A stretch of 64,000 nucleotides of DNA from an uncultured Poribacteria bacterium (GCA_951813565.1 OX638351.1:1088001-1152000); one strand, 5' to 3'. Shown: positions 29,222 to 40,248, counted from the first letter of the stretch. A program made the numbers and translations. Notes: generated by a model from the sequence alone, not told the origin.

Positions 29222-29734
29222 TCAATTAATATAAAGATACTTTTTCCAAGACGGATGGTAACCCCGAAAATGACGGTTGAGTTGCAAATATGTCAAGATT
29301 GATGGCGTTTTTGGTATTCGTTTCAACTTGAAATGCGTATCATGAAGCATCTGGCTGCCTTTTTTGTTGTTGCAGCGTTTACATGCGGTCACAACATTTT
29401 CCCAAGTTGTCTTTCCACCTTTTGAAATTGGGATAACGTGGTCAAGCGTTAGCAAAGAAGCAGCAAACTCTCGATGGCAATACTGACATACATGTTGGTC
29501 GCGCGCAAGTACATTCTTACGGGAAAACTTGACAACACTGCGCGGAACATGCACGTATTTTACCAAACGAATAACGTGCGGCACTTTGACAATAGCCGAC
29601 GGTGACCGAATTTCCGATTCAGACACTTCCTCTGTTTGAGCAGTTCCTTTGAAAACCATCTTCAAGGCGCGTCTGAGATTGCAAACGTTGATCGCTTCAT
29701 AACTGGCATTTAGCACTAAAACAGGTACTTCCAC
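29222..29734 (-). CDS. HNH endonuclease (McrA-like)
   Basis: VLVLNASYE, FSRKNVLARDQHVCQYC, LTLDHVIPISKGG..TWENVVTACKRCNNKKG; AGGAGG RBS, GTG start. Confidence 0.92.
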   Translation of the reverse strand: MEVPVLVLNASYEAINVCNLRRALKMVFKGTAQTEEVSESEIRSPSAIVKVPHVIRLVKYVHVPRSVVKFSRKNVLARDQHVCQYCHREFAASLLTLDHVIPISKGGKTTWENVVTACKRCNNKKGSQMLHDTHFKLKRIPKTPSILTYLQLNRHFRGYHPSWKKYLYIN

Positions 29735-30092: not shown

Positions 30093-30998
30093 CTATTTGC
30101 GTCTGGAAAGATACGCCGACAACGCATGGTCAAACGGGGTAGTAGTATCCATTTGCACATAATCAATCTGGCTCGCGCCGCATCCGCGACGGTAATTCTG
30201 AATAAACTGATTCAGATTTTCAAGATATGCGGTTTTAAGTGAGTTGGCTTGTGTTGAAAGTGTCTGCCCAGTTTCCATATCTCGAAAAATTACAGAGCCG
30301 TTATATGGGAAGGTGAGTTCAGCATGATCAAGTAGGTGAAAAACGATCACCTCATGTTTCTGATGGCGGAGATGTTTCAGTGCTGATATGACGTTCGAGG
30401 GTTCATCAAGTAGGTCGGAGATAACAATAACCAATCCGCGCCTAACAATCCTTTTAGCGAGTTCGTGAAAGAGACCGCTCAACTCGGTTTCCTGCCCAGG
30501 CGTAGCATTTTCAAGCGCAGACATAATTGCACGCAGATGTGTTGCTGCGCCTCTCGGTGGAATATATTGCGTAATATCTGTATCAAAAAGAGCTAATCCA
30601 ACAGAGTCGCGTTGCTTCAGCATGAGGTAGGTAAGCGTGGCAGCAAGATAACACCCATATTCAAACTTCGTCAAAGTGTCATCTTTATGTTTGTAGTTCA
30701 TTGACGCGCTTGTATCAAGTAGAATATATGCGCGTAGGTTCGTCTCCTCTTCAAACTTCTTAACATAATACCGATCAGATTTCCCGTAGACCTTCCAGTC
30801 GATATATCGGATTTCATCGCCGGGCATATATTGCCGATGCTCAGCGAACTCTACGCTAAACCCCTGATACGGACTTTTGTGCAACCCGGTAACGAACCCT
30901 TCAACCACAAGTCGGGCGACAAGTTCCATACCTCCGATACGAGAGAGTGCTACTGGATCAAGATATTTGTGAGATGTTTGCATATTTGCTTTCACCAC
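30093..30998 (-). CDS. DUF58 domain protein (vWA-containing, MoxR-associated family)
   Basis: GLHKSPYQGFSVEFAEHRQYMPGDEIRYIDWK, EEETN, LLDTSASM, VISDLL. Start may be ATG 30983. Confidence 0.92.
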   Translation of the reverse strand: MVKANMQTSHKYLDPVALSRIGGMELVARLVVEGFVTGLHKSPYQGFSVEFAEHRQYMPGDEIRYIDWKVYGKSDRYYVKKFEEETNLRAYILLDTSASMNYKHKDDTLTKFEYGCYLAATLTYLMLKQRDSVGLALFDTDITQYIPPRGAATHLRAIMSALENATPGQETELSGLFHELAKRIVRRGLVIVISDLLDEPSNVISALKHLRHQKHEVIVFHLLDHAELTFPYNGSVIFRDMETGQTLSTQANSLKTAYLENLNQFIQNYRRGCGASQIDYVQMDTTTPFDHALSAYLSRRK

Positions 30999-31946: not shown

Positions 31947-32193
31947 TTAACGATCCTCATGGACAATATCATTGATGAAATCTAAGCGTTCTTCTTCGTC
32001 CATAGCATCCCAATCCAGACCCCGTGCGGTGCATACCTTTCGTGCCTTTGATTCAGCATATTTCATCCTTTCCTCACGTTCAACCGGAGTCTCCTTATGC
32101 AAGCGCGCGAACGACCGATAATTTTTCTTCGGGCGGCATTTGCTGAATTAAATCAATAATCTGTTTAGTTGTTAATTCAATAGTTAAATTCAT
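31947..32193 (-). pseudogene. frameshifted small protein, antitoxin-like
   Basis: AGGAGG RBS; MNLTIELTTKQIIDLIQQMPPEEKLSVVRALA* continues after a +1 shift near 32098 as KETPVEREERMKYAESKARKVCTARGLDWDAMDEEERLDFINDIVHEDR*. Length is 3n+1. Confidence 0.6.
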
Positions 32194-32282
32194 GCTAATC
32201 ACCTCCTAAGCCATGTTTCACAATTATAACAAAAACCCACCTCAATATCAACAGAAATCTAAGAAATGAAGAGAGAAATATC

Positions 32283-32380
32283 TTGGAAGAAAACTCATCA
32301 TGAATTTCAATATTGCAGGTAAAATGATGCAACGATCAGCAAATTATATCGTTTTATATTTTGTTGGGAAAACAGATAAA
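32283..32380 (+). pseudogene. decayed 5' remnant of a tenth VOC paralog
   Basis: Reads IMNFNIAGK, then after a 1-nt shift NDATISKLYRFIFCWEN, matching the array consensus VxxFEIAGKNxExLSxFYRSxFGWE. Confidence 0.6.
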
Positions 32381-32488
32381 ACCCGCATGGATTTTTTCTG
32401 CATACACTATTACCTTAGCCCATTTCCATGGGCATGCAATCAATCACAAAGTCATTGATGTTAAGATTGAAAATACGGAGCATATTCA

Positions 32489-32875
32489 ATGGGTAATCCT
32501 GTTACATACTTTGAAATAGCAGCTAAAAACGGTAAAGAGTTATGTGGTTTTTACAGTTCCGTATTTGGCTGGAAAATAGAACAATTACCTGGCGGCGATT
32601 ACGGCATTTACTCTTACGGTATTGACTCACAGTCAGAAGAGGGAATAGCCGGGCACATTTTTGTGTTGCCTGAGTTTTTTGACTTCACAAACCAAGTCAC
32701 TTTTTACGTTAAGGTAGACAATCTACAAACCTATCTTCAGAAGGTGGAAAGTCTTGGTGGTCATACCCTTATACCACCTCAGCAAATTCCTGGTAACAGA
32801 GGGTCATTCGCATGGTTCGTTGACCCGAGTGGTAACTGCTTAGGATTGTACAGACAACCAGAATCGAATGAGTGA
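32489..32875 (+). CDS. VOC/glyoxalase-bleomycin resistance fold protein, array copy 1
   Basis: MGNPVTYFEI..FYSSVFGW..GHI..VTFYVKVD..GG..IPP..FVDPSGN; own GGAG RBS. Confidence 0.92.
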   Translation: MGNPVTYFEIAAKNGKELCGFYSSVFGWKIEQLPGGDYGIYSYGIDSQSEEGIAGHIFVLPEFFDFTNQVTFYVKVDNLQTYLQKVESLGGHTLIPPQQIPGNRGSFAWFVDPSGNCLGLYRQPESNE

Positions 32876-32941
32876 AGCCCTCAATTTTTACGTTCAATTT
32901 GTGATTAAAGAATTTAATATGATAGGAGAAACTAAATTTAA

Positions 32942-33316
32942 ATGGGAAATCCAGTTGTGTATTTTGAAATAGCAGGTAGAAACGGCGAAAAGTTAAACGA
33001 TTTTTATTGTTCCATATTTGGTTGGAAAACGGATAAAAACCCTTATGGTGGGGCATATATGGTTGACTCGCAGCCGGATGATGCGGGCATCCCCGGACAC
33101 ATTTTTCCGGTTACAGAAGATATGGACTTTGATAAGCACGTCACCTTTTATGTTGAGGTGGACGATCTTCAAGCGTATCTTGACAAGGCAGAAAGTCTTG
33201 GAGGAAAGATCCTAATTCCACCACAAGAGATTCCTGGGAACATGGGAGCGTTTGCACTTTTCCTTGACCCAAGCGATAATTGCATTGGATTGTATCGACT
33301 CCCAGATTCAAATTAA
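32942..33316 (+). CDS. VOC family protein, array copy 2
   Basis: MGNPVVYFEIAG..FYCSIFGW..GHI..YVEVDD..FLDPSDN. Confidence 0.92.
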   Translation: MGNPVVYFEIAGRNGEKLNDFYCSIFGWKTDKNPYGGAYMVDSQPDDAGIPGHIFPVTEDMDFDKHVTFYVEVDDLQAYLDKAESLGGKILIPPQEIPGNMGAFALFLDPSDNCIGLYRLPDSN

Positions 33317-33445
33317 CCATATCCATGCTTCCTTGAGCGTGAATCGTAAGAAACTTTGAGACTTACAAAAAGAGGGTGGCGAACTAAGGTTTACCACTCT
33401 ATTTTTTTCGCAATAATACATTCAAATTATAAAGGAGTAACTTCA

Positions 33446-33808
33446 ATGGGAAATCCAGTTGTGCATTTTGAAATAGCAGGCAAAAACACTGAAAATTTAA
33501 GCAATTTTTACGGTTCGTTATTTGGTTGGGATATACAAAAGGACAATGACGGATTTTACAACATAATGCCAGTTCCAGATTTAGAACAGGGTATATGTGG
33601 GCACATATTACCCACTACTGAAGAAATGTCTGTATCTAACTTTGTCTCTGTTTATATTCAGGTAGATGATCTTGAAGCATCACTTGAACAAGTAGAAAAT
33701 CACGGTGGCAAAACCCTTGTCCCGCCGCAAACTATTCCTGGAAGCGGGAGCTCTTTTGCTATGTTCCTTGACCCAAGTGGCAACTGCATCGGTTTGTACA
33801 AAGCATAA
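33446..33808 (+). CDS. VOC family protein, array copy 3
   Basis: AAGGAG RBS then ATG 33446, MGNPVVHFEIAGK..FLDPSGN. Confidence 0.92.
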   Translation: MGNPVVHFEIAGKNTENLSNFYGSLFGWDIQKDNDGFYNIMPVPDLEQGICGHILPTTEEMSVSNFVSVYIQVDDLEASLEQVENHGGKTLVPPQTIPGSGSSFAMFLDPSGNCIGLYKA

Positions 33809-33889
33809 AATGTATAAAGTCAAGAAATGATGAACAGCGGCAATCACGCAGTTTTCATCATAAAACGATTTAAATAAGGAGAAATTCTA

Positions 33890-34246
33890 ATGGCAAATCC
33901 TGTCACGATTTTTGAAATAGCAGGTAAAATAGAAGATTCGTTATGCGATTTTTACAGCTCTTTGTTCGGTTGGGACATAAATCAGGACGAAGATTGTGGG
34001 AATACTGTAAAAACAGGATCCGATGAGGGCATTCAAGGACACATTGTCCAGACAACCGAACAGATGCCGATCACAAACCATGTTACTGTTTACATTGAAG
34101 TAGATGACATTGAAGCGTCTGCGAAGAAGGTAGAGAGTAATGGAGGAAAGGTAATTATGGGACCCATGCCTATTCCAGATGGCGAAAGTTTATTCGCAAT
34201 GTTCCTTGACCCAAGTGGTAATTGTCTCGGTCTGTTCCAGTCTTAA
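33890..34246 (+). CDS. VOC family protein, array copy 4
   Basis: MANPVTIFEIAGK..GHI..FLDPSGN. Confidence 0.92.
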   Translation: MANPVTIFEIAGKIEDSLCDFYSSLFGWDINQDEDCGNTVKTGSDEGIQGHIVQTTEQMPITNHVTVYIEVDDIEASAKKVESNGGKVIMGPMPIPDGESLFAMFLDPSGNCLGLFQS

Positions 34247-34383
34247 GCAGCAATTGGTAGATAGTCGCTTCATTATCCACAAGGTTCGTCTGAAAATGGG
34301 GTGACACCTTTTTAGTGATTGTAAAGCAAAAGTCATTTTACCATTCGTTATGATAAAGAACCAATTTTAGATGGAGAAATATC

Positions 34384-34749
34384 ATGAGTAGTCCCGTCGT
34401 GCATTTCGAAATCGCTGGAAAAGATGTCCAAAAGTTGATTGATTTCTACAGCACCGTGTTTGAGTGGAAAATTTTTCCGTTAAACGATGAGTTATACATT
34501 GCGGACCCAGCGTCATCTCAAGGGATAGAGGGACATCTATTTGAGACAACCGAAGAAATGGGTTTCATAAACCTCGTCATCATCTATGTTCAAGTCTATG
34601 ATATCTGGGGTTGTCTGGAACAGGCGGAGAGTCTTGGTGGAAAAATCCTGATACAACCACAAGAAATTCCGGGGAATGCAAGCCACTACGCGCTGTTCCG
34701 AGATCCAAGTGGAAACTCCATCGGTTTGTTGCAACGAAGATTATCATAG
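34384..34749 (+). CDS. VOC family protein, array copy 5
   Basis: MSSPVVHFEIAGKD..GHL..FRDPSGN. Confidence 0.92.
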   Translation: MSSPVVHFEIAGKDVQKLIDFYSTVFEWKIFPLNDELYIADPASSQGIEGHLFETTEEMGFINLVIIYVQVYDIWGCLEQAESLGGKILIQPQEIPGNASHYALFRDPSGNSIGLLQRRLS

Positions 34750-34788
34750 TGGAAAATCCATTCCAAACCAGTTTAAGGAGTAATCTTA

Positions 34789-35175
34789 ATGGAAAATCCA
34801 GTGACGAAATTTGAAATTGTCGGTGAGGATAGTAAAACATTAGGTGATTTTTATCGTTCCGTATTTGATTGGGAGTGGACAGAGTACGCTGAGGGATATT
34901 ACGGCTTTGAGACAGGTTCTGAATCTGATAACGGGATTGAAGGGCATATATATCCGCCAAACGATGAAATACCTTTAGTAGACAATGTTCCTTTTGCAAA
35001 CACTGTTACCATTTATGTAACAGTGGAAGATATTCATGCTACGGTTGAGAAACTTGAGAGTCTTGACGGGACGATTCTTATGCCGCCTACAGTTGTATCC
35101 GATAAAGGTGAGTTATTAGCGATGTTTCTTGACCCAATCGGTAACCGAATTGGTTTATATCAACTAAAGGAGTAA
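34789..35175 (+). CDS. VOC family protein, array copy 6
   Basis: MENPVTKFEI..GHI..FLDPIGN. Confidence 0.92.
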   Translation: MENPVTKFEIVGEDSKTLGDFYRSVFDWEWTEYAEGYYGFETGSESDNGIEGHIYPPNDEIPLVDNVPFANTVTIYVTVEDIHATVEKLESLDGTILMPPTVVSDKGELLAMFLDPIGNRIGLYQLKE

Positions 35176-35180
35176 TATCA

Positions 35181-35570
35181 ATGGGTAATCCTGTGATGTT
35201 TTTTGAAATAGCAAGCAAACAAGGTGAATTGTTGCGTGATTTTTATTGCGACCTGTTTGATTGGACTATTCTACCATTTGGTTGGAGTATACCACACTTT
35301 CCAAATGATATTTTTGCTATTGATCCGACGCCGCCTCCATTACCGGACAAAGGTATAAAAGGACATATATATCCACTATCCGATGAAATAGATTTTTCTA
35401 ATCGTGTTTCAATTTTTATACAAGTTGACGATCTGCAAGAAACACTCGAAAAGATTGAGAGTCAGGGTGGAAAAACGCTCGTGCCGCCGCAGATGCTTCC
35501 TGATAGCATGGGATCAATCGCTATGTTCCTGGATCCAAGCGGAAATGTTGTTGGTTTACATCAAATATAG
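35181..35570 (+). CDS. VOC family protein, array copy 7
   Basis: MGNPVMFFEI..GHI..FLDPSGN. Confidence 0.92.
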   Translation: MGNPVMFFEIASKQGELLRDFYCDLFDWTILPFGWSIPHFPNDIFAIDPTPPPLPDKGIKGHIYPLSDEIDFSNRVSIFIQVDDLQETLEKIESQGGKTLVPPQMLPDSMGSIAMFLDPSGNVVGLHQI

Positions 35571-35695
35571 GTGTTATTGTATCACGAAACTTGAATTAAC
35601 TTTTTAACCCTAAACAATGCAATGATATAAAACATATCAGAAGCGAATCAAATATTTTGAATCAATTTCATTTTTAATTTAAAGGAGTAATACCA

Positions 35696-36052
35696 ATGGG
35701 CAATCCAGTCATGTGGTTTGAAATAGCAGGCAAAAACGGTGCGGAATTATCTGAGTTCTACCGTTCACTTTTTGGGTGGGAAATTTCACCGGAGACCAAC
35801 GGTGTTCATCTGTGTGATCCATCTCCGGATCAGGGGATAAAAGGGCATATTTTTCAAACAACCGATGAGATGCCATATACAAACCACGTAACCGTTTATA
35901 TTTCTGTGGACGATCTTGAGGCAGCAGTTGCGAAGGTAGAGAGTAATGGCGGGAAGATTTTAATACCACCACAAGAAATTCCAGATTTCGGGGGTTCTTT
36001 TGCGATGTTTCTCGATCCAAGCGGCAATGTTATCGGTTTACACAAACAATAG
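35696..36052 (+). CDS. VOC family protein, array copy 8
   Basis: MGNPVMWFEIAGK..GHI..FLDPSGN. Confidence 0.92.
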   Translation: MGNPVMWFEIAGKNGAELSEFYRSLFGWEISPETNGVHLCDPSPDQGIKGHIFQTTDEMPYTNHVTVYISVDDLEAAVAKVESNGGKILIPPQEIPDFGGSFAMFLDPSGNVIGLHKQ

Positions 36053-36094
36053 AAAATATAAATAGTGTAAATTCCGAACTTTTAGAATAATAAG

Positions 36095-36135
36095 AACAGA
36101 GTGGTGAAAAGATTTCGCTACTCTGTTTTATTTTT
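36095..36135 (+). terminator. intrinsic terminator-like hairpin between VOC copies 8 and 9
   Basis: aacagagtggtgaaa-aga-tttcgctactctgtt followed by ttattttt, immediately before the RBS of copy 9. Confidence 0.6.
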
Positions 36136-36149
36136 AGGAGTAGATTTCA

Positions 36150-36527
36150 ATGGGTAATCCAGTTACGCATTTTGAAATAGCCGGCAAAGACAGTGAGGCG
36201 TTAGCTGAGTTTTATCGTTCCCTTTTTGATTGGGAGATTCATCGATTTGATTGGGAGATGATCCCGTTTTCCACCGGCATTTATGGAGTGATTGCGTCAC
36301 CGGCTCAAGGGTTAAAAGGACACATTTTCCCAACGACTGACGATATGGATTTCTCAAATCATGTCACGATTTATATCCTCGTCGATGATCTTCATGCGAC
36401 ACTTGAGAAAATAGAAAATCATGGCGGCAAGATTGTTATCCCGCCTCAGGAAATTCCTGATAACAGAGGAATACTTGCTATGTTTCAGGATCCGGGCGGA
36501 AACGTTATCGGAATTCATGAAGCATAA
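36150..36527 (+). CDS. VOC family protein, array copy 9
   Basis: MGNPVTHFEIAGKD..GHI..FQDPGGN. Confidence 0.92.
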   Translation: MGNPVTHFEIAGKDSEALAEFYRSLFDWEIHRFDWEMIPFSTGIYGVIASPAQGLKGHIFPTTDDMDFSNHVTIYILVDDLHATLEKIENHGGKIVIPPQEIPDNRGILAMFQDPGGNVIGIHEA

Positions 36528-36573
36528 TTATGATTAAGTGACACATTTTGTTATACAAATTTCTTGAGACTAT

Positions 36574-39500
36574 TTATGTAAGCACTGGTTTTAGCCATCG
36601 TCTTGTCGTTTCAATGTCCATTCCAGTGCGTTTAGCGTAATCCGCAACCTGATCCTCTCCTATTCTGGCAATGCTAAAATACCGCGCATCCGGGTGTGAA
36701 AAATACCACCCGCTAACAGATGCTGCAGGAAACATCGCGAGATTCTCTGTAAGAGAAATACCTGTATTTTCAGTTGCATTCAGTAGATCAAACAAAACCC
36801 GTTTCTGGTTATGATCGGGACACGCAGGGTAACCCGGGGCAGGACGAATCCCCCGATATTTTTCTGCTATCAAAGCATTGTTATCCAATGACTCATCAGT
36901 TGCGTAACTCCAAAGGACTGTGCGGACGTGCTGATGCATACACTCAGCAAAAGCTTCGGCTAACCGATCTGCTAATGCTTTTGCCATAATGCTGTTGTAG
37001 TCATCTTGATTTTGCTCAAACTCAGCACAGAGTTCAGGAACACCGATTCCAGTTGTTACAGCAAACGCGCCAATATAGTCCGGAAGAGATGTCACTTTCG
37101 GAGCAATGAAATCGCTAAGGCTTAGGTTCGGTCTGGAGAAAGGTTGCTCGGTCTGTTGACGCAAATGATGTAGCGTGCCAATAATCTCAGTTCTATCTTC
37201 GTCAGCATATATCTGCGTGTCATCACCAACACCGTTCGCAGGAAAGATTCCCACAACAGCAGATGCACAAAGTTTTTTCGCTTCAACGATTTGATTTAGA
37301 AGCGTTTTGCCATCTTCAAGAAGTTTCCGCGCTTCTGCTCCCATATCTGGTTTTTCCAGAATATTTGGATATTTTCCTGTGAGTCCCCATGTTGTAAAGA
37401 AAGGAGTCCAATCAATATAGTCAACAAGTTGTGCTAATGGATAATTGTCAAAGACCTTAATACTTGTCATCTGTGGTTTGGGAGGGAGATAATTTTTCCA
37501 GTCAGGAATAAATTTGCGTTGTTGTGCGGTAGCAAATGGCAAAAGCCTTGTCTGTTTCCTGTTTTTTGCGCGACGTTCCCGAATATCAGCATATTCTTCT
37601 CGTGTCTGATCAACCAACTTTTGTTGGTTTTCACTGCTCATCAAATTACTGACAACACTAACACTTCGAGAAGCATCCTTGACGTGAATCGTGGCACCGC
37701 TGTACGCAGGTTCAATTTGGACAGCGGTATGAATCTTTGAAGTAGTGGCACCGCCAATAAGTAGTGGGATACGGAAACCTTCACGTTCCATCTCCTCAGC
37801 GACATGAACCATTTCGTCTAACGATGGCGTAATGAGTCCGCTCAATCCAATTATATCAGCGTTCTCTTTCCGTGTTGTTTCCAAAATATCTTCCGCTGCC
37901 ACCATCACACCGAGGTCAACGATATCATAATTATTACATCCTAACACCACGCCCACGATGTTTTTGCCGATGTCATGAACATCACCTTTCACCGTAGCCA
38001 TTACAATCTTTCCTCTGGATTGAATACCGCCTTCAGTTTGTTCCATTTCAATATACGGAATGAGATGTGCAACAGCTTTTTTCATCACGCGTGCACTTTT
38101 GACGACTTGCGGTAGAAACATCTTGCCATCACCAAAAAGTTCACCTACGCGATCCATACCATCCATCAACGGACCCTCAATCACTTGTATAGGACGTTCA
38201 TGCTTTAAGCGCGCTTCTTCTGTATCTGCTTCAACGAATTCGATAATACCTTCAACGAGGGCATGACTTAGCCGTTGCTCAACGGATAATTTTCGCCATT
38301 CCTTGTTAACGCGCTTCTTTTTTCCTTTGGCTTGCAGCGTACTTGCGAGATTAACGAGTCTATCCGTAGCATCTTCTCGGCGATTAAACAGAACATCTTC
38401 TACTGCTTCTAACAATGGTTTAGGTAGATCGTCATAGACAGCAAGTTGACCTGCGTTTACAATACCCATGTCCATGCCTGCATTGATTGCATGGTAGAGA
38501 AACGCCGCGTGCATCGCTTCACGCACTGTGTCGTTGCCACGGAAGGCGAATGAGATATTGCTTACACCACCACTCACTAATGCGGATGGACAAGTCTCTT
38601 TTATCTTTTGGCACGCCTTTATAAATGCTTGCGCGTATTCATTGTGTTCTTCAATTCCTGTTGCAACAGCAAAAATGTTTGGATCAAAAATAATATCTTC
38701 TGGTGGAAAGTTTACCTTTTCTGTCAATAATTTATACGCCCTTTGACATATCTCCACTTTACGTTCAAAAGTGTCTGCTTGACCTTTTTCGTCAAAAGCC
38801 ATCACGATAACCGCCGCACCGTATTTTCTGATAAGCCGTGCCTTATCTAAAAAATCGTTCTCACCCTCTTTTAAACTAATTGAATTGACGACACCTTTCC
38901 CTTGAATGCATGCTAAACCTACCTCGATTACTTCCCATTTGCTGGAATCAAGCATAATAGGCACGCGACTAATATCTGGTTCTGCTGCGATTAGGTTTAA
39001 GAATTTGGCAATTGCGGTTTGTGCATCTAACATGCCAGCGTCCATATTGATGTCAATAAGTTGGGCGCCATTTTCTACCTGATCCCGCGCAACCTCTAAT
39101 GCAGTCTCATAATCTTCTTTTTTGATAAGCGTTGCGAAGCGCCGTGATCCTGTTACATTTGTCCGTTCACCTACGTTAACAAAGAGAGAGTCGGGTGTGA
39201 TGTTGAATGCTTCTAAGCCGCTCAATCGGCAAGCGCTTTCTTGAGGTTTGGGTTGTCTGGGAGGATATTCTGCGGCGACTTTGGTAATGGTTTCAATATG
39301 TTCAGGTTGGCTGCCACAGCATCCGCCGACGATATTGACGAATCCGTTTTGTGCGAATTCATGCATCCAATTTCCCATTTCCTCTGGTGTTTGTGTATAG
39401 TGCCCAAGTTCGTTTGGGAGTCCAGCGTTCGGATAACAGATAACAGGAATATCCGCGAGTTTTGCCATTTCTGCTAAATATGGGCGAATCTGTTGTGCGC

Positions 39501-40248
39501 CAAAACCACAGTTTAAACCTACAGCGAGTAGGTTTGCATGACGAACGGAGTTCCAGAAAGCTTCAACTGTTTGCCCAGACAGGTTGCGTCCACCGCCGCC
39601 ACTTCTGTCAGAGGAAACGATGAGAGGGATGTCAATACCTCGTGTTTCAGCAAGGGTTTGTATTGCAAAGAGCGCTGCTTTACAGTTCAGTGTGTCCATG
39701 ACAGTTTCAACGAGTAAGAGATCCGCACCGCCATCAATTAATCCCTCTGCTTGCGTGGTATAGGCAGATACAAGTTGTGCGAAAGTAATATTTCGGTATC
39801 CGGGGTCGTTCACGTTCGGAGAGATGGAGCAGCTGCGATTTGTAGGTCCCATACTTCCCGCGACAAAGCGAGGTTTGTCTGGCGATGACCATTTGTCTAC
39901 CACTTCACGAGCGATTTGGGCTGCGGCGTAGTTTACCTGATACGCTTGATCCTGAAGTTGATAGTCTGCCATTGAAACGGATGTGCTGGTAAAGGTATTT
40001 GTCTCGATGATGTCCGCGCCTGCTTGGCAGTAATTTGTGTGGATTTCACGCACAATATCGGGTTGGGTGATAGAGAGCAGGTCATTATATCCTTTGAGTT
40101 CGGAGGGGTGATTTGCAAACTGGTCGCCTCGGAAATCTTCTTCCGTGAGTCGATAGGTCTGCAAAAGTGAACCCATTGCACCGTCAAGGGCCAATATCCG
40201 TTTCTTTAGTTCATTTTTTAGATGTATTATCCGTTCAGAATCTGCCAT
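36574..40248 (-). CDS. metH: cobalamin-dependent methionine synthase
   Basis: [51 protein letters not shown]. Confidence 0.97.

Follow-up and report, generated by a model that had tools for sequence, protein, structure and literature searches.

Within a 64,000-nucleotide (nt) stretch of the genome of an uncultured Poribacteria bacterium (GCA_951813565.1 OX638351.1:1088001-1152000), which we call the window and to which all positions below refer, nine genes for small proteins with the vicinal oxygen chelate (VOC) fold lie one behind the other on the plus strand. This array is a stable set of nine different, individually maintained old genes under purifying selection that extends to their loops. 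With moderate confidence, we favour the explanation that the array encodes an ancient, vertically inherited and subfunctionalised set of cytoplasmic VOC proteins, which would apply one chemistry to nine related small molecules. The array is a real lineage-specific expansion of a known fold in a known, poorly studied branch, and its new part is the nine-member subfunctionalised array itself. Named homologs carry the annotation 'VOC family protein [Candidatus Poribacteria bacterium]', and our literature search found no paper linking Poribacteria with glyoxalase or VOC arrays.

Nine VOC genes and the fold of their products

The array consists of nine intact open reading frames (ORFs) of 118-129 amino acids (aa), all on the plus strand, which span positions 32489-36527 and are separated by intergenic gaps of 5-137 nt. 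The genes are as follows, with omega standing for dN/dS between the window gene and its orthologs:

32489..32875, plus strand: VOC copy 1, 128 aa, PF00903; orthologs in 7 genomes; omega 0.10-0.21
32942..33316, plus strand: VOC copy 2, 124 aa, PF00903; sister of copy 1; omega 0.04-0.16 where dS could be estimated
33446..33808, plus strand: VOC copy 3, 120 aa from the ATG that bears a ribosome-binding site (RBS), PF00903; omega 0.03-0.07
33890..34246, plus strand: VOC copy 4, 118 aa, PF00903; orthologs in 15 genomes; omega 0.04-0.07
34384..34749, plus strand: VOC copy 5, 121 aa, PF00903; paralog group with orthologs also in the sister genus g13
34789..35175, plus strand: VOC copy 6, 128 aa, PF00903; 6-residue insert after beta4; omega 0.11-0.27
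35181..35570, plus strand: VOC copy 7, 129 aa, PF00903; starts 5 nt past copy 6; Pro-rich insert
35696..36052, plus strand: VOC copy 8, 118 aa, PF00903; nearest to the consensus
36150..36527, plus strand: VOC copy 9, 125 aa, PF00903; sister of copy 8; omega 0.10-0.20

A GGAG or AGGAG motif is located 6-13 nt 5' of the ATG in all nine genes. The context AAGGAGTAA-N4-CA-ATG is common to six of the nine, which indicates that the duplicated unit included the RBS. The ORF of copy 3 extends upstream to a TTG at 33356, and its RBS belongs to the ATG at 33446. The preliminary description of this DNA, a model's reading of the sequence, was therefore right in listing nine intact VOC genes of 118-129 aa on one strand, each with its own RBS; the start of the array that it gave, position 32283, is non-coding, and the first gene begins at 32489. 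Searching the whole genome (5.43 Mb, one contig) with a profile of the array yielded exactly nine matches with E values of 4e-49 to 1e-58, and since all of them fall in the array, chance is excluded. Copies 7 and 9 contain internal tandem duplications of 21 nt (35256-35300 and 36225-36269, respectively), which repeat the F-x-W segment of beta2 and are the source of the inserts in these two proteins; paralog 8, a member of the same clade, is without this duplication. Where copies 5 and 6 meet, a small tandem duplication has left three occurrences of an 18-nt motif at 40-nt spacing (34703-34800), from the last part of copy 5 through the spacer into the first part of copy 6.

All nine proteins exceeded the Pfam cut-off of PF00903 (20.6 bits) with scores of 24.6-49.0 bits. 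The array supplied 8 of the 17 PF00903 matches of the genome, and nine other PF00903 genes, some of them scoring better, are located elsewhere. The curated models of NCBIfam gave sub-threshold matches only: KbpA (NF053614), the sole model to match as many as seven of the nine copies, reached 16.6-41.2 bits at a cut-off of 250 and covered one half of its 231 positions, the glyoxalase I model TIGR00068 (cut-off 120) gave 17.2 and 18.4 bits in two copies and no match in the other seven, and TIGR03081 (cut-off 114.95) gave 17.4 bits. Similarly, Ble-like_N (PF22677) stayed below its cut-off of 24.5 with 17.3 and 21.9 bits in copies 4 and 8 and did not match the other seven. In the PDB, a profile of the nine copies matched eight distinct sequences, namely Rv0577 of M. 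tuberculosis (3oxh, E = 5.6e-18), RHA04853 of Rhodococcus sp. RHA1 (2r6u, 4.4e-15), maize glyoxalase I in three entries (about 4e-10) and three 'Glyoxalase' chains (about 1e-6), two of which, 8stb and 9jt3, are titled AbxF. The motifs F-E-I, F-Y, F-G-W and G-L in the last strand are common to the array, 2r6u and 3oxh in the alignments obtained.

AlphaFold2 models of copy 8 (pLDDT 93.0, pTM 0.81) and copy 7 (pLDDT 89.7) displayed the order b1-a1-b2-b3-b4 followed by b5-a2-b6-b7-b8, i.e. the paired beta-alpha-beta-beta-beta modules, with the inserts of copy 7 forming lower-confidence loops between beta2, beta3 and beta4. Using the copy 8 model as query, the top 1000 PDB chains ranked by Foldseek were realigned with VIA-align; 354 of the 1000 had a Z of at least 5, and all 50 entries listed are VOC-fold proteins. 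The best structural match was one chain of 2r6u (Z 16.0, 1.7 A over 113 residues), and other unswapped VOC matches included glyoxalase I (GlxI) of C. acetobutylicum (Z 12.7), MRD (1kmz, 12.4), methylmalonyl-CoA epimerase (MMCE, 11.3) and AbxF (10.0). The chains of E. coli GlxI (1f9z), which we take to be domain-swapped, fitted the model poorly (TMq about 0.4). Since one unswapped chain of 2r6u can be superposed on the copy 8 model, the cavity should lie within one chain, and each chain most likely forms it from its own two beta-alpha-beta-beta-beta halves.

With 2r6u and 3oxh as the nearest relatives in sequence and 2r6u in structure, the nine proteins are members of the Rv0577/RHA04853-type VOC subfamily. 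This subfamily is presumably of the COG3324 type. RHA04853, an uncharacterised single-domain protein, falls into the length class of the array proteins, adopts their unswapped two-module fold, is 27-29% identical to them and has in common with them the H-F-E-I start, F-Y, F-G-W and G-N-V-x-G-L, including the Gly of the last strand. Rv0577 and KbpA, the best solved and curated sequence relatives, also have this Gly; unlike the nine separate single-domain genes of the array, each of them combines two VOC domains in one fused protein (282 aa for Rv0577, 231 aa for KbpA).

Orthology, selection and the distribution of fixed and variable residues

The orthology set comprised 113 full-length copies and 11 partial matches from 21 genomes. 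In a tree of the 113 copies, each of the nine paralogs forms its own clade with the orthologs of other species (SH-aLRT 93-100). The gene order 1-9 is identical in four genomes (G000, G002, G012 and G017), and smaller arrays retain it, with 4-5-6-7-8 in G009, 5-7-8 in G007 and 2-4-5-6-7 in both G004 and G022. Sister paralogs, i.e. 1/2 and 8/9, are adjacent in the array. These adjacent sisters, the common RBS context and the lack of mobile genes nearby bear out the earlier proposal of tandem duplication followed by divergence. Broken copies in G006, G014, G037 and G011 indicate that members of the array are born and lost.

Between paralogs, identity is 40-63% and pS is 0.60-0.85; because synonymous sites are thereby saturated, per-site dN/dS across paralogs, the check that had been proposed for the nine copies, is not feasible. 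Within orthogroups, dN/dS could be determined for whole genes. Each paralog is conserved across species at 64-97% identity, and omega was 0.03-0.27 in all 73 of the 94 pairs of window gene and ortholog for which dS could be estimated, dS being saturated in the other 21. Restricted to the loop (about 20 codons and thus very few sites), omega was mostly <0.5, with higher values in seven pairs, one of them at 1.09. Purifying selection in every estimable ortholog pair speaks against purely neutral divergence of the copies. Since the paralogs are old, collinear across species and under purifying selection, the array is no fast-diversifying library.

An alignment of the nine proteins (A1) confirmed the shared motifs P-V-x-x-F-E-I, F-Y-x-x-x-F-x-W, G-H and D-P-x-G-N as well as the series of residue 7, which reads Y,Y,H,I,H,K,F,W,H from copy 1 to copy 9. 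An invariant Gly is located three residues past the Asn, and the invariant positions include P4, V5, F8, E9, I10, F21, Y22, F26, W28, G-H, D-P and N..G. Indels and sequence divergence are located between W28 and the G-H motif, as had been reported; the region, then labelled a loop, corresponds in the models to the beta2-beta3 hairpin plus the beta3-beta4 loop.

The polar residues Glu9 (beta1), His51 (beta4) and Tyr68 (beta5; Phe in copy 7) are fixed in the nine proteins, together with Gly114 (beta8). Glu9 is invariant across the 88 rows of alignment A3, and its conservation is at least 90% across the 91 rows of A2; other phyla are represented in both alignments. Gly114 aligns with a Glu of maize glyoxalase I (6bnn) and with the Gln of the E144Q mutant entry 6bnz. 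We take this residue of glyoxalase I to be a metal ligand. Judged by this alignment, the canonical Glu ligand of the last strand is missing in all nine copies. The preliminary description had noted the Gly correctly and had likened the proteins to metal-free VOC proteins; Rv0577 and RHA04853 carry the same Gly, which makes it a trait of the whole subfamily and no marker of a new metal-free state. Extra His residues are present at positions 64 and 116 in copies 8 and 9 and at position 7 in copies 3, 5 and 9. Because Glu9, His51 and Tyr68 are fixed and because of the extra His residues in copies 8 and 9, a non-canonical metal site or acid-base catalysis is possible, and on the basis of their sequences the nine proteins cannot be called metal-free.

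Sites were classified on 103 of the 113 rows of the orthology set, the other ten being <64% identical to any paralog of the window. Among the 118 sites, 33 are paralog-specific, 26 are invariant and four vary within orthogroups. Paralog-specific sites accumulate in residues 29-49, a segment that runs from beta2 through the hairpin and beta3 into the loop before beta4 (13 of 21, compared to 20 of 97 elsewhere; Fisher p = 3e-4). A concentration of specificity-type divergence in the beta2-beta3 hairpin/beta3-beta4 loop region is thus supported at the level of the sequences. We infer the cavity face of beta1, beta4, beta5 and beta8 from periodicity, with F8, I10, I52, V65, I113 and L115 packing oppositely, and from the alignment of Gly114. 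Six of the 13 sites on this face are paralog-specific (7, 53, 64, 70, 112 and 116) and four are invariant (5, 9, 51 and 114); in copy 1, the presumed cavity-facing sites read Y7 E9 H F53 Q64 Y68 K70 C112 G114 Y116. The walls of the putative pocket are aromatic (Y/H/F/W at 7, F/Y at 53 and Y/F/H at 116), and Cys112, also at a position predicted to face the cavity, is conserved in copies 1-4.

History of the locus and its leader

The array is located between two genes that serve as anchors in comparisons with other genomes. The features considered in addition to the VOC genes are the following, with g1 denoting the genus of the array and g13 its sister genus:

29222-29734: HNH endonuclease gene, assigned with Pfam
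30093..30998, minus strand: DUF58/VWA gene (PF01882, 2.1e-53), left anchor; 92-98% identical beside arrays in g1 and g13
32298..32488, plus strand: conserved leader of about 190 nt that precedes the first array gene
36093..36129, plus strand: terminator-like hairpin of 17 pairs with a T-run, between copies 8 and 9
36574..40248, minus strand: metH-like gene of 1224 aa that converges with the array; right anchor; 77-94% identical beside arrays in g1 and g13

The name metH is a reading of the sequence by the preliminary description and by us. According to Pfam, the neighbours on the left side are YidC, the RNase P protein, the HNH endonuclease, DUF58 and an SPFH protein; on the right side, metH is accompanied by a LolA-like protein, a CDP-alcohol phosphatidyltransferase, LigT, RecA and a proteasome-type ATPase.

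The arrangement of DUF58, array and metH recurs in the six g1 genomes checked. Of ten loci fetched from g13, nine have VOC copies between both anchors, and the remaining one stops at a contig edge with metH only; these loci hold 1-3 copies. A survey of the phylum (176 genomes, E <= 1e-10) detected matches in 35 of 39 g1 genomes (1-10 each), 42 of 65 g13 genomes (1-3) and 10 of 10 genomes of the genus g5 (2-4), and nearly all remaining genera had 0 or 1 match. The comparison of copy numbers at the DUF58-metH locus, as suggested in the preliminary description, could thus be made and sets 1-3 copies in g13 beside up to 10 matches in g1 genomes. A tree rooted on distant homologs, with few columns and many deep forks unresolved, contains a clade of paralog 5 (15 rows including g13 copies, SH-aLRT 99), and g13 has two further groups besides the orthologs of paralog 5. 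It follows that at least three paralogs are older than the separation of g1 and g13, and that the rest arose in g1.

The g1 genomes G001, G003 and G020, which are without copies, keep DUF58 and have no metH within about 9 kb. Near DUF58 of G003 (L034 4783-6015 and 10485-10765), a DDE transposase and short duplicated DUF58 fragments are present, which suggests that a rearrangement removed the locus in this genome. In agreement with the preliminary description, no transposase or integrase was found in the flanks of the array examined with Pfam, and the single PF00589 match of the genome is located at 4.77 Mb, about 3.6 Mb from the array at 1.12 Mb. A repeat search of the array revealed no shared intergenic inverted repeats. 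We considered an integron cassette array and ruled it out, given the distance of about 3.6 Mb to the sole tyrosine recombinase, the lack of shared repeats and the synteny in two genera.

A blastn search located the leader in 11 further g1 genomes, upstream of whichever paralog leads the array. The inverted repeat AACGAT-N15-ATCGTT is part of the leader, which might serve as an operator or a promoter. The 5' part of the leader resembles the remnant of a decayed VOC gene start: positions 32298-32400 gave weak split-frame matches to the VOC profile and match the beginning of copy 4 with 79% identity across 28 nt, and the alignments of the leader contain frame-breaking indels. Compensatory changes were found in 0 of 17 predicted pairs of the leader. 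Rfam gave no match to the leader; its single sub-threshold match, RT-9 (31.3 vs 46.1 bits), lies on the minus strand inside copy 3 and was taken as chance. Scans for promoters (14 vs 14.5 +/- 3.8) and terminators (3 vs 3.8 +/- 1.9) did not rise above shuffled sequences. The hairpin at 36093-36129 could separate copy 9 transcriptionally.

In a sponge RNA library (X1), contigs 88-95% alike cover parts of copies 1, 2, 4, 5, 8 and 9, and one contig of 559 nt bridges copy 1 into copy 2. Parts of metH are without cover in X1, and two other runs, X8 and X9, gave no useful cover; we draw no conclusion from these gaps. These contigs are a weak hint that the array genes are transcribed. The highest depth in this library was found at 31947-32202 on the minus strand, where a pair of small ORFs that overlap each other (51 and 35 aa) is conserved beside DUF58 in g1 and g13; they are preceded by a sigma-70-like promoter (11 of 12 positions) with TG extension and gave only a weak match to DUF7167. 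One contig of a DNA run (X2) joins 32186 to 36604 and skips 4417 bases, i.e. the array and the leader. The shorter side of this join has 21 letters only; as weak evidence, the join may point to a second strain in the same sample that has either no array or another one. In the g5 genome G031 (L025 2177-10260), two VOC copies are bordered at one end by BacA and a SnoaL-like protein and at the other by an MBL-fold protein together with HlyD/MacB-like efflux genes, neighbours that give a faint hint at small-molecule handling.

Candidate functions of the array and their significance

In the explanation that we favour, the centre of the cavity would be identical in all copies (Glu9, His51, Tyr68 and Gly114), and the surrounding sites 7, 53, 64, 70, 112 and 116 together with the hairpin/loop region would be paralog-specific and kept among orthologs. 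A fixed polar centre, paralog-specific walls and lid loops and strong purifying selection usually mark one chemistry on different substrates or ligands, and we read the array in this way, with nine different but related small molecules as its presumed targets. The chemistry might be of the acid-base or non-canonical-metal type, comparable to the isomerase, lyase or cyclase reactions known from VOC enzymes, and might act on metabolites of the sponge holobiont. To catalysis we give slightly less than even confidence, followed by stoichiometric sequestration as a more tentative second; a shared chemistry with differing specificity is, in our estimation, as likely as inert binding. We lean to catalysis because the centre is polar and invariant, because Glu9 is conserved far beyond Poribacteria and because the nearest relative of known activity is, by its PDB titles, the enzyme AbxF. 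These titles (8stb and 9jt3) describe an enzyme of the VOC fold by which the spiroketal in an anthrabenzoxocinone antibiotic is formed. AbxF resembles the array proteins with 29-31% identity, a Foldseek E of about 1e-8, a Z of 10.0 and a profile E of about 1e-6, and this likeness shows that the VOC branch in question includes natural-product-tailoring enzymes. Unlike the array proteins, AbxF has two domains and 213-262 aa; our literature search found no paper on AbxF spiroketal formation.

Alternatively, the nine proteins could be metal-free sequesterers like the bleomycin-, mitomycin- and tiancimycin-binding VOC proteins, each taking up one reactive product, with heterodimers widening the repertoire. 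The known drug-sequestering proteins, among them MRD (1kmz), TnmS1 (5umq), the bleomycin-binding proteins and iblB/iblC, are small and metal-free, and several of them use pockets at the dimer interface. MRD matches the copy 8 model with a Z of 12.4, and a Gly in place of the last-strand Glu in all nine copies, the aromatic-rich walls predicted at positions 7, 53 and 116, and the location of the g5 copies beside SnoaL-like, MBL-fold and HlyD/MacB-like efflux genes would all fit this explanation. The similarity in sequence is marginal, with one copy, copy 9, weakly matching the TnmS-type binders 5uhj and 5umq (E about 0.005) and Ble-like_N staying below its cut-off in two of the nine copies. An invariant Glu-His-Tyr centre is unexpected for pure binders of unrelated ligands, the window is without a biosynthetic cluster or a resistance context, and the known sequesterers are encoded by single genes, either next to a biosynthetic cluster or within a mobile element, unlike the nine paralogs on this chromosome. 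The 45 heterodimer pairings of the preliminary description would need a pocket across the dimer interface. This part of the explanation is disfavoured by the superposition of the modelled chain on a single unswapped 2r6u chain; because the pocket would lie within one chain, mixing of pocket halves in heterodimers is unlikely. As a whole, we consider sequestration of this kind possible but somewhat unlikely.

The sequence relatives also bring up protein-binding regulators like KbpA of Streptomyces, which binds the kinase AfsK, in which case the nine paralogs would have nine partner proteins. The model NF053614 matches seven of the nine copies, with scores (16.6-41.2 bits) far under the cut-off of 250. 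The kinase-binding role that we presume for Rv0577 and KbpA is echoed only by the title of 3oxh, 'kinase inhibitor homolog Rv0577'. With 231-282 aa, KbpA and Rv0577 have two domains where the array proteins have a single one, and the paralog-specific sites are found on inner strand positions and in the hairpin, not on one outer surface; we therefore regard partner binding as very improbable. Hardly credible, finally, is a dosage amplification of common metal-dependent isozymes (glyoxalase I, dioxygenase or epimerase), or the neutral drift of a redundant array. The PF00903 fold and the structural matches to GlxI and MMCE would agree with such isozymes, but TIGR00068 (17-18 vs 120 bits) and TIGR03081 (17.4 vs 114.95) remain far below their cut-offs, the last-strand Glu is missing, and nine other PF00903 genes, some better-scoring, are present elsewhere in the genome. 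Since the paralogs have diverged (40-63% identity) and each is strongly conserved across species (64-97% identity, omega 0.03-0.27), neither dosage amplification nor drift fits.

Several points weigh against the favoured explanation of one chemistry on nine related molecules. His51 and Tyr68 are not conserved in 2r6u, and the Glu-His-Tyr centre may thus be fixed only within Poribacteria. The excess of paralog-specific sites on the presumed cavity face (6 of 13) over the opposite core face (2 of 13) is not significant (p = 0.20), and the assignment of the cavity face itself depends on strand periodicity and on the equivalence of Gly114 to a residue that we presume to be a metal ligand. The RNA evidence stems from assembled contigs of related strains in one study, with possible carry-over of DNA, and the flanks of the array consist of housekeeping genes that give no hint at a pathway. 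A 2026 preprint on the integron cassettes iblB and iblC, which are of the COG3324 class and have ORFs of 384-390 bp, reports that they raise the minimal inhibitory concentrations of bleomycin (10.64898/2026.03.15.711940); by analogy, this would favour binding over catalysis for the array as well.

A more far-reaching and, in our view, unlikely extension of the favoured explanation is a chemical-handling battery, in which nine Glu-His-Tyr pockets would be tuned to metabolites of the holobiont. Members would be gained and lost with the chemistry of the host, from 0 to about 10 per species, Cys112 of copies 1-4 could capture electrophiles, and the whole set might be switched via the leader with its AACGAT-N15-ATCGTT repeat. 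If this were true, the paralog-specific residues would constitute a readable code of ligand classes for a large uncharacterised VOC subfamily.

The array reveals no new fold, mechanism or kind of genetic system. Its significance lies in the Rv0577/RHA04853-type branch, which is large and almost uncharacterised and for which the array represents a natural long-term divergence experiment. With their fixed centre, their conservation across species and the delimited sites that distinguish them, the nine paralogs are a ready panel for finding out what members of this subfamily bind or convert. In addition, the array may show how an uncultivated sponge symbiont copes with a chemically rich host.

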